18,284 nt of DNA, taken from a virus (taxonomy: Duplodnaviria > Heunggongvirae > Uroviricota > Caudoviricetes). The notes beneath the pieces were generated by a model. The model made no database searches. It was not told the origin of the DNA and saw only the letters and a list, made by a program, of their open reading frames with translations. A program made the position numbers and the translations under genes. The stretch spans positions 1 through 18,284 of IMG/VR virus record IMGVR_UViG_2671180878_000013; one strand, given 5' to 3'. This document shows positions 11,574 through 14,045 of this stretch, in pieces (positions within the stretch are counted from its first letter, which is position 1; the number at the start of each line of letters is the position of its first letter).

Positions 11574-14045
11574 ATGAGTAAAGTCTTTATTTGCGCCGCC
11601 ATTCCGGACGAACAGGCAATAAAAGAAGAGGGCGCAGTTGCTGTAGCCACTGCCATTGAAGCCGGTGATGAACGCCGCGCCCGTGCCAAATTTACCTGGC
11701 AATTCCTGGAGCAATATCCTGCTGCTCAGGACTGCGCTTATAAATTTCTTGTCTGCGAAGATAAACCTGGCATGCCCCGCCCTGCTATCGACTCCTGGGA
11801 TACCGAATATATGCAGGAAAACCGCTGGGATGAGGAATCCGCTTCCTTTATTCCGGTCGAACCAGAATCCGATCCTATTAACGTCAATTTTGACAAGCTG
11901 TCCCTTGAAGTACAGAACGCGGTCCTGGTTAAGTTCGGTACATGTGAAAACATCACCGTTGATATGGCGATTGACGCGCAGGAATTACTGCAAGAAGACG
12001 TGGCTACCTTTGACGGACATATCGTTGAAGCACTGATGAAAACGCCTGAAATTAACGCTATGTATCCGGAACGCAAACTGTTCGCTATCGGATGGGTTAA
12101 ACACAAATGTAAGCCGGGTACCAAATGGCCCGAAATTCAGGCTGAATTACGTAACTGGAAAAAACGGCAGGACGCAGAGCGCAAAGAGACTGGAAAATAC
12201 ACGTCTGTTGTTGATCTTGCCCGCGCCAAAGCCAACCGACAGCACACTGAAAACCCAGCAGAAAAAATCCCTCCTGTAACTGCCGCCATTCATCGCGAAT
12301 ACAAGCAGACATGGAAAACCCTGGACAGGGAGCTGGCCTACTATCTCTGGCCTGGTGATGCGGATGCCGGAAACATTGACGGCAGCATCCTTCGCTGGGC
12401 TAAAAATGAAGTTATCGCCAGAGATCGCGAAGACTGGAAGCGCATCTCCGCATCAATGCGCAAACAACCTGATGCGCTTCGCTACAGCCGCCAGACTATT
12501 TTTGGCCTTGTCCGTGAACGTCCGATCGACATTCACAAAGACCCTGTGGCACTGAACAAATACATTACTGAATACCTGACTACAAAGGGCGTGTTTGAAG
12601 ATGAAGGAAGAAATCAGAGCGCAACTGATACTCTCTCGTCGCCAGTACCAGAAACTGATGCAGTGGAAACGGCAATTCAGGACAACGAAAAAACCGAATG
12701 CAAAGTGGAAGTCGAATCATCTGTAGAGCGTGAGGGGCCGTTCTACTTCCTCTTCAGCGACAAGGATGGCGAAAAATACGGTCGTGCAAACAAACTTTCT
12801 GGTCTGAATAAGGCGCTGGCTGCAGGGGCTACTGAAATCACGAAAGAAGAATATTTTGCCCGCAAAAACGGTACATACTCAGGTTCACAACAAAATACTG
12901 GTGCATCTGACACGATCGCACAACCGGAGCCGGTAAAAGTTACCGCTGACGAAGTAAACAAAATTATGCAGGCAGCCAATATCAGCCAGCCTGACGCCGA
13001 TAAGTTGCTTGCTGTATCACGTGGTGAATTTGTTGCAGGGATTAGCGACCCGAATGATCCGAAATGGGTGAAGGAGATTGAAACCCGCGATTCAGTGAAT
13101 CAGAACCAGCAAGAAACGGAACAGAACGACCAGAAAGCGGAACAAAACAGCCCAAATGCGTTACAAAACGAGCCAGAAACGAAACAATCCGAACCAGTAG
13201 TGCAACAGGAACCGGAAAAAGTCTGCACCGCCTGCGGTCAGAGCGGTGGCGGCAACTGCCCCGATTGTGGCGCTGTCATGGGCAACGCAACATACCAGGA
13301 AACATTCGATGAAGAGAATCAGGTTGAAGCTCAGGAGAATGATCCGGAGGAAATGGAAGGCGCTGAACATCCACACAAGGAGAACACTGGCGGCAATCAG
13401 CATCACGCCAGCGATAGTGAAACTGGCGAGGCGGCAGATCCCTTAATTAAGGTGAATGGTCATCACAATCTCACATCCACCAGCAGAGCGGGGATTCATC
13501 TGATGATCGACATTGAAACCATGGGAAAAAATCCCAATGCCGCGATTATCTCAATAGGCGCAATATTTTTCGATCCACAAACCGGAGATATGGGACCGGA
13601 ATTTAGCAAGACCATCGATCTGGATACTGCTGGCGGAGTTATTGATCGTGACGTCATTAAATGGTGGCTGAAGCAATCACGTGAAGCGCAGTCTGCCATT
13701 CTGACCGATGAAATCCCGTTAGATGATGCACTACTGCAATTGCGGGAATTTATCGCCGAAAACTCCGGTGAATTTTTTGTTCAGGTCTGGGGAAATGGAG
13801 CCAACTTCGACAACGTGATTTTACGCCGTTCATACGAACGGCAGGGGATCCCCTGCCCCTGGCACTACCACAACGATCGCGATGTACGCACAATCGTTGA
13901 GCTAGGGAAAGCCATAGACTTCGATGCCAGAACAGCTATCCCATTCGAAGGTGAGCGCCACAATGCACTTGATGACGCCCGTTACCAGGCAAAATACGTT
14001 TCAGCTATCTGGCAAAAACTGATCCCGAGTCAGGCTGATTTTTAA
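11574..14045 (+). CDS. ydfE: Intact YdfE-like 823-aa prophage protein with a CxxC...CxxC zinc ribbon and a C-terminal DEDD-type 3'-5' exonuclease domain
   Basis: C-terminal motifs [10 protein letters not shown] (Exo I) and [13 protein letters not shown] (Exo III-like); zinc ribbon [16 protein letters not shown]; Q/E-rich acidic linker; GAGG upstream of the ATG. The K-12 ydfE is a truncated remnant of this gene. Confidence 0.7.
   Translation: [823 protein letters not shown]

Follow-up and report, generated by a model that had tools for sequence, protein, structure and literature searches.

The 18,284-nucleotide virus sequence analysed here (IMG/VR record IMGVR_UViG_2671180878_000013, Caudoviricetes; hereafter the window) carries, directly upstream of its excisionase and integrase genes xis and int, an uninterrupted open reading frame (ORF) for a protein of 823 amino acids (aa) that joins a YdfE/RecE-type scaffold to a DEDDh exonuclease. 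Judged by its sequence, the protein is a mosaic, in which a RecE-type scaffold bears a different head and ends in a nuclease of opposite polarity, and we hold this architecture and the family placement that follows below to be very probable. The gene and its parts are listed here with the evidence that delimits each of them; pLDDT stands for the predicted local distance difference test score of an AlphaFold2 model.

11574..14045, + strand: whole gene, stop codon included, for the 823-aa DEDDh exonuclease on a YdfE/RecE scaffold (ORF list)
11574..11873, + strand: alpha/beta head, aa 1-100 (AlphaFold2 unit; probably Pfam YdfE_N)
11886..12191, + strand: helical domain, aa 105-206, probably Pfam YdfE_C, within the part kept in the K-12 YdfE remnant (AlphaFold2, pLDDT 94-98)
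12309..12608, + strand: helical core in common with RecE (about aa 290-350 there), aa 246-345 (AlphaFold2, pLDDT 92-98)
12609..12737, + strand: predicted disordered acidic linker, aa 346-388 (pLDDT <50)
12738..12869, + strand: small domain of two beta-hairpins plus helices (GPFYFLFSD...), aa 389-432 (AlphaFold2, pLDDT 93-96)
12996..13445, + strand: segment homologous to recE at the DNA level, with the zinc ribbon and an acidic linker, aa 475-624, ending at the junction with the nuclease domain (blastn)
13224..13268, + strand: zinc ribbon C551-x2-C554...C562-x2-C565, aa 551-565 (cysteine positions)
13497..14012, + strand: DEDDh 3'-5' exonuclease domain (Rv2179c-like / T4 DexA family), aa 642-813 (Pfam PF16473)

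The AlphaFold2 model covered aa 1-460, was built from 58 diverse sequences and reached a mean pLDDT of 85. It contained four confident units (aa 1-100, 105-206, 246-345 and 389-432) and low-confidence linkers at aa 207-245, 346-388 and 440-460. Proteins that are 100% identical over aa 1-460 have precomputed matches to PF27430 (YdfE_N) and PF27432 (YdfE_C), and these near-identical proteins indirectly assign the window protein to the YdfE family; PF27430 probably corresponds to aa 1-100 and PF27432 to aa 105 to ~250. The local Pfam library, which preceded these two families, returned PF16473 as the sole domain, and a sequence search of the whole protein against the PDB retrieved DexA for the tail and no match for aa 1-640. 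An earlier note on this DNA, made from the letters alone, had left the first ~500 aa without assignment and proposed domain searches and a structure prediction of aa 1-500. That blank is now partly filled, by the two YdfE families, the four predicted units and a RecE-like stretch at aa 246-625; what stands of the claim is that no fold of known function was found there.

The central part of the protein is where the kinship with RecE lies. The NCBIfam RecE equivalog NF007259 matched aa 246-625 over model positions 271-602 of 877 with 285.9 bits, against a curated cut-off of 1269 bits, so that the protein as a whole does not qualify as a RecE. BLASTP aligned aa 279-626 with residues 294-591 of K-12 RecE, weakly at first and then with very high similarity that takes in the zinc ribbon and the acidic linker. 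The close part of the match pairs aa ~470-626 with K-12 RecE 443-591, and at the DNA level aa 475-624 were 76% identical to recE codons 455-590 over 450 nt (blastn). The core at aa 246-345 was matched by BLASTP to both K-12 RecE and HK225 RecE, and tblastn with aa 242-372 found matches in the RecE genes of Gifsy-1/2, HK225, mEp237 and Klebsiella phages. The zinc ribbon, which gave only a weak match to Pfam DZR (E=0.14), is kept in K-12 RecE (CNACGQTGGDNCPDC) and was found, among family representatives, in the window type and K-12 RecE only. Around it the composition is markedly skewed, with 16 Q/N and 12 D/E residues in aa 501-550 and, in aa 551-600, 12 acidic residues and no basic one. The earlier note had singled out both a central zinc ribbon and a Q/E-rich acidic linker, and both are present. 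By sequence, then, the protein has in common with RecE a non-catalytic central region, a zinc ribbon and an acidic linker.

The two ends are of other kinds. Neither the PD-(D/E)XK nuclease (PF12684/DUF3799), which is present in K-12 RecE and HK225 RecE, nor Exonuc_VIII (PF06630), which matches K-12 RecE aa 2-178 with E=6e-98, gave a match in the 823-aa protein. Homology ends at RecE aa 588-591, give or take a few residues; a C-terminal RecE fragment from aa 588 is sufficient for RecT-dependent recombination (PMC3945230), and the RecE nuclease domain has been placed at aa 564-866 (PMC11611040). Since the homology stops where the RecE nuclease begins and the ends differ, the protein is best read as a mosaic, whose junction marks the clean replacement of one domain by another through in-frame exchange within a flexible linker. 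RecE (of Rac, with RecT) and the window protein thus resemble each other in the early-left slot just upstream of xis/int, in a long non-catalytic N-terminal part, and in the helical core (RecE ~290-350), the segment at aa ~460-500, the similar zinc ribbon and the acidic linker. They differ in their heads (YdfE-type in the window, PF06630 in RecE), in their tails (DEDDh, 3'-5', in the window; PD-(D/E)XK, 5'-3', in RecE) and in the recT gene, which does not follow in the window. According to the earlier note, an N-terminal region built like a well-known recombination exonuclease would have overturned its view; such likeness was found in part, as RecE homology over aa 246-625. The N-terminal domain of RecE is described as 'of unknown function' apart from an enhancement of linear-linear recombination (review PMC11611040), and because its function is not described the homology provides a family and no mechanism.

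The tail can be read more closely. PF16473 matched aa 642-813 with 223.6 bits (cut-off 27, E=1.8e-66) over positions 2-177 of its 177, and D646, E648, D746, H796 and D801 all align with catalytic positions of DexA. The best sequence match in the PDB was 8kel/8ken, T4 DexA (E=6e-6; 27% identity to DexA); the identity of 8kel as T4 DexA is given in PMC12153337. The tail is therefore predicted to be a catalytically complete nuclease of the DexA family, in agreement with the DEDD exonuclease that the earlier note had recognised in the last ~190 aa. The window domain, which keeps all catalytic residues, belongs to the same DEDDh family as T4 DexA and its E. coli homologue EcD (together 'HREX'), but these two are small free-standing proteins, and in the window the domain forms the C-terminal end of a scaffold protein of 823 aa.

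The name of the Pfam family, '3'-5' exoribonuclease Rv2179c-like', raises the question of an RNA substrate. In lytic growth, a 3'-5' exoribonuclease like Rv2179c might process or degrade RNAs of the host or transcripts of the early-left operon, the precursor of DicF among them; many copies of the gene are in fact named '3'-5' exoribonuclease' by NCBI, and the gene is co-transcribed with the locus of the DicF small RNA (sRNA). We nevertheless regard this function as quite improbable, given that DexA, the sole characterised phage member of the family, is a DNA exonuclease, that the other fusion partners of the scaffold are all DNA-recombination domains, and that the protein has no RNA-binding domain.

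The gene is intact and widespread. The ORF begins with ATG, preceded by GAGG ~10 nt upstream, and is 100% identical to a gene in many chromosomes of enterohaemorrhagic Escherichia coli (EHEC), where the label is 'exonuclease' only (WP_000048585.1; UniRef A0A9Q6Y3K2); phrog_2082, likewise labelled 'exonuclease', matched over the full length (1-823/823). Viable lambdoid phages carry it too (mEp460_ev081, Evi, Tritos, HannyBb and PhiR42_1). Of 5426 complete E. coli genomes, 4800 contain related DNA, at 2 places in the median and at 9 at most, and in 3511 genomes one such place spans 80% of the gene or more. In the Qin prophage of K-12, dicF-dicB-ydfD are followed by the ydfE pseudogene (b1577), which is cut by IS2E; the remnant shares 84% identity with aa 1-256 of the 823-aa protein and stands at the same place after dicB-ydfD, so K-12 has only the head and the window the complete protein. 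This is as the earlier note had it, which described a full-length gene here and a truncated remnant in K-12. The gene is thus already catalogued (PHROG, Pfam, RefSeq) and its parts are of known kinds; a functional study of the 823-aa protein was not found in literature searches on ydfE, on Rv2179c with phage, or on RecE with DEDD and prophage.

The ORF is real, intact and under purifying selection. A codon-level comparison with the orthologue of phage Tritos (85% aa identity) gave a ratio of nonsynonymous to synonymous substitution rates (dN/dS) of 0.21 for the whole gene, and for this reason we take it as a maintained gene and not a chance ORF. Among the parts, the small domain (aa 389-432) is the most constrained with 0.052, followed by the head (aa 1-100) with 0.076, the helical domain (aa 105-206) with 0.11, the DEDDh domain (aa 641-823) with 0.157 and the core (aa 246-345) with 0.20; the predicted disordered segment (aa 346-388), at 0.92, is neutral. 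Constraint on the N-terminal units is no weaker than that on the catalytic domain, which argues that they are functional parts and not a spacer. If it were a leftover of a recE-like gene, without function and decaying in cryptic prophages, this would explain the truncated copies in K-12 and many assemblies, as well as a DEDD-tailed relative (P0242) that has lost two catalytic residues. With the gene intact in at least 3511 genomes and in viable phages, and with dN/dS at 0.05-0.2 in every folded unit and ~0.9 in the disordered linker only, we find a relic barely credible, and the pseudogene reading was rejected on the dN/dS against Tritos. One patch, aa 546-640 (window 13209-13493), had a synonymous rate (dS) of only 0.16 against Tritos, the head having 0.69-0.83; this suggests a recent recombinational exchange, and the patch coincides with the recE-homologous segment.

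The neighbours of the gene are as follows.

10876-10927, + strand: DicF sRNA (Rfam DicF, 77 bits)
11104-11292, + strand: dicB (Pfam DicB, 7e-39)
11289-11480, + strand: DUF1482/ydfD-like gene (Pfam DUF1482, 2.8e-19)
14115-14366, + strand: xis (Pfam DUF1233 excisionase, 1.6e-31)
14386-15681, + strand: int (Pfam Phage_integrase)

The order is thus DicF, dicB, the DUF1482/ydfD-like gene, the 823-aa exonuclease, xis and int, and the upstream genes DicF-dicB-ydfD-like belong to the same early-left operon as the exonuclease. Rfam and Pfam confirm the position after dicB/ydfD and before xis/int, the slot in which, as the earlier note had remarked, lambdoid phages have recombination or host-takeover functions. 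True RecE genes are followed by recT; here xis follows the exonuclease directly. In the region of the window from Q to int, an annealase was not detected by PHROGs or by tblastn with a limited set of annealase queries, and the annotations of Tritos and Evi (complete genomes) and of HannyBb (non-structural half) list none. In the early-left operons of lambdoid phages, the Red system of lambda (Exo/Beta) fills the same position and presumably acts at the same time. With Red and other two-component phage recombinases the window protein has no kinship of sequence or fold, its exonuclease polarity is opposite, and it is without an annealase partner. Two further ORFs are the only other sizeable unknowns from the repressor region to the exonuclease, namely a 216-aa ORF of the early-left operon at 9676-10326 (+), which has no Pfam family and falls in phrog_2151 with no function assigned, and a 73-aa ORF on the opposite strand at 10327-10548 (phrog_4274).

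The timing of expression bears on a further explanation, in which the protein would be a weapon or scavenger of the DexA/EcD type, degrading the DNA of rival phages (e.g., T-even phages with 5-hydroxymethylcytosine, 5hmC) or of the host in lysogens or after induction, and the scaffold would only regulate or localise the nuclease. The closest solved structure is that of T4 DexA (8kel), EcD digests the 5hmC DNA of T4, spares unmodified double-stranded DNA and protects cells from T4, and Escherichia is reported to be the genus in which bacterial homologues of DexA occur most often (PMC12153337, 2025). The presence of related DNA in the great majority of E. coli genomes, often in several copies, is also a spread typical of useful prophage cargo. 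On the other side, several results speak against a defence function expressed in lysogens. The gene lies within the early-left operon and a promoter/terminator scan gave no signal above chance for it, and recET of Rac, which holds the equivalent slot, is described as 'completely repressed' in lysogens (PMC3945230). The residues for 5hmC recognition are not kept, W152 of DexA being replaced by H766 and D169 by A785, although D784 is adjacent and a one-residue alignment shift is possible. Of the tetramer residues, S87 of DexA corresponds to P715, and D90 is retained as D718, unlike its loss in EcD (A78); neither the published 5hmC-recognition residues nor the loss of D90 is seen in the 823-aa protein. 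PADLOC-DB 2.0 yielded no system-specific model, only a generic CRISPR-associated DEDDh match (E=7.6e-5) and a weak effector match. The sharing of the scaffold with annealases and RecE is likewise left unexplained. On balance, we consider a warfare nuclease of this kind unlikely, though it is the strongest of the competing explanations, and an induced anti-rival or scavenging function of any sort is about as doubtful.

EcD itself may be connected with the present family. According to the supplementary primers EcD_F and EcD_R (PMC12153337), it was cloned from an M-I-D-T-E-T start located exactly at the Exo I motif, and this start matches the point of the M644-IDIET motif in the window protein, a coincidence that also speaks for the DexA/EcD type of function. 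EcD may thus represent only part of a larger prophage protein of such a type, either its C-terminal domain or an incomplete ORF, and many E. coli DexA homologues may be tails of the YdfE/RecE-scaffold family. The primer sequences for EcD (HAK9828821.1) had no match in the loci compared or in the viral and genome contig collections, so that identity with EcD is only a possibility, which counts against a function carried over from EcD.

To place the scaffold in a wider family, aa 1-460 were used in an exhaustive HMMER search of 1.84 billion cluster representatives. It retrieved only 188 clusters, and the 62 long members were classified with hidden Markov models (HMMs) by head and tail, as follows.

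YdfE head: DEDDh tail 3, RecE-type PDDEXK tail 4, Rad52-like tail 22, none of the three 16
RecE_N head: DEDDh tail 2, PDDEXK tail 4, Rad52-like tail 0, none of the three 6
No recognised head: DEDDh tail 1, PDDEXK tail 4, Rad52-like tail 0, none 0

Truncation probably accounts for some of the tail-less members. Most members of each class have the helical core (aa 246-345), and many YdfE-head relatives have the small domain (aa 389-432) regardless of tail. All variants occupy the same early-left operon slot, and the gene that comes next varies with the tail. After a PDDEXK tail it is a RecT-family gene (in K-12 Rac, HK225, and P0130 in L009, the last with Pfam RecT at 2e-36), after a Rad52-like tail a Gp157-family gene and then xis/int, and after a DEDDh tail, whichever the head, xis/int directly (the window, O157 L001, Tritos and L007/L008).

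The Rad52-like tail has no Pfam family, also occurs as free-standing 'hypothetical proteins' of ~240-285 aa, and is labelled 'exonuclease' in PHROGs (phrog_7838/2489). In hhalign, its profile aligned with human RAD52 1-211 (checked against 1kn0) over 115 columns with P=0.023, RecT and shuffled controls giving 0.65-0.86, and the sole Pfam match of the tail, at a sub-threshold E of 0.04, was Rad52_Rad22. From these two results, the commonest partner of the scaffold is predicted to be a single-strand annealing domain of the Rad52/Sak type. A representative is the 710-aa protein of Stenotrophomonas phage BUCT708 (phrog_2489), which shares head and core with the window protein (28% identity over aa 11-377) and has the same slot before xis/int; in such fusions, however, the tail is a putative Rad52-fold annealase with a coiled-coil extension, the next gene is of the Gp157 family, and there is no nuclease domain.

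Individual members add to this picture. P0123 (901 aa, alignment A6) has a RecE_N-like segment followed by the YdfE helical modules, the core, the small domain and a DEDD tail. The YdfE and RecE_N heads as strict alternatives were therefore rejected, and their co-occurrence in one protein indicates that the two are separate modules. P0242 (RecE_N head and DEDD tail, A6) reads VDLKTMG (E to K) and SFANVIL (D to A) at two catalytic positions, so some family members may carry an inactive DEDD domain. A fourth type of tail, of ~200 aa, is found on the YdfE heads P0126, P0197, P0210, P0215, P0223, P0224, P0236, P0247 and P0262 (A7); it has the motifs NDLLSGxTNIM...TGHL...FSDEEIHxVAT...ALTYRQQLTIAALQGLCANPA, with no Pfam match and no PDB sequence match.

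Several other features of the window accompany the early-left operon. At 22-651 lies a cluster of sRNA and transfer RNA (tRNA) genes, with AgvB at 22-81 (+), STnc100 at 82-290 (-) and, all on the - strand, tRNA-Arg(tct) at 400-476, tRNA-Arg(tcg) at 490-566 and tRNA-Met(cat) at 576-651; this is the typical tRNA island adjoining the Q gene in lambdoid prophages of EHEC. A sok antitoxin RNA (hok/sok type), a C4 antisense RNA and an isrK Hfq-binding RNA are also present (coordinates listed are 4679-4853 (-) and 5562-5746 (-)), the C4 and isrK RNAs adjoining an anti-repressor-like ORF at 4956-5507 (-). Just beyond int there is a DinI-like gene at 15754-16101 (+), and the end of the prophage carries as cargo a type III effector gene of the Peptidase_M85 family (NleC-type, degrading NF-kB p65) at 16472-17458 (-; E=8e-113).

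The combined results suggest that the 823-aa exonuclease is a DNA-end-processing protein of the lytic cycle, belonging to the recombination slot of the phage and made by domain swapping, a reading to which we give a probability of roughly 0.5. The protein would be made only after induction, from the early-left operon, as the absence of a promoter-like signal above chance and the complete repression of recET at the equivalent position in lysogens would imply. Its scaffold, ordered as alpha/beta head, helical domain, RecE-like core, small domain, zinc ribbon and acidic linker, would act as a delivery or tethering module that brings DNA-processing domains to a common target, which could be the ends of DNA, an intermediate of replication or recombination, or a protein of the host. 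The DEDDh domain would then trim DNA 3' ends or 3' flaps in replication-coupled recombination or repair of the phage, and as the phage appears to be without an annealase of its own, this would rely on host functions. T4 DexA serves as a precedent, being a 3'-5' exonuclease with a recognised part in the repair of double-strand breaks (intron homing), and it works on DNA 3' ends both there and in scavenging (PMC12153337). The specific role of the protein is thus proposed with far less assurance than its architecture, and is evenly balanced at best.

A number of points weigh against a role in DNA-end processing. The link to recombination is one of guilt by fusion and position, and Foldseek against BFVD gave no match at E<=1e-3, so a structural analogue of known function was not found for the scaffold there. 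A 3'-5' exonuclease makes no 3' tails for an annealase or RecA, and the protein cannot simply replace RecE. The lack of an annealase, which rests mostly on annotations and a limited query set, could equally mean that these phages have no recombination system and that the protein does something else, and a family named for an exoribonuclease may act on RNA.

A broader version of the DNA-end-processing role can be put forward only speculatively. The N-terminal scaffold of YdfE and RecE may constitute a 'recombination hub' of temperate phages, with one conserved target (a DNA end, a component of the fork or replisome, or the single-stranded-DNA-binding protein SSB) and swappable effector domains, among them nucleases of both polarities (5'-3' and 3'-5'), a Rad52-type annealase and one or more uncharacterised tails. 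On this view, the DEDDh version would be a system of one polypeptide that needs no annealase; it would either drive an undescribed host-dependent form of recombination or repair or double as an induced nuclease against the DNA of rival phages.

The new element presented here is a chimera on a RecE scaffold, with a nuclease of opposite polarity and without an annealase, in a family with at least four types of tail, among them a previously unrecognised, predicted Rad52-fold annealase. The role of the N-terminal ~590 residues of RecE has been unsettled since the first studies, although full-length RecE underlies direct-cloning (linear-linear) recombineering. A scaffold under strong selection that is found with at least three DNA-processing tails amounts to a set of natural domain-swap experiments; the swappable tails make the question of the RecE N-terminus experimentally approachable and the hypothesis of a targeting module testable. 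A sizeable group of proteins now labelled 'exonuclease' or 'hypothetical' carries the predicted Rad52-fold annealase, and these are candidate recombineering tools. The gene for the 823-aa protein is among the commonest uncharacterised prophage genes of E. coli, with multiple copies in EHEC, and because of this commonness its role in induction, mosaic formation and inter-phage competition would be relevant to the biology of the Shiga toxin (Stx) phages.

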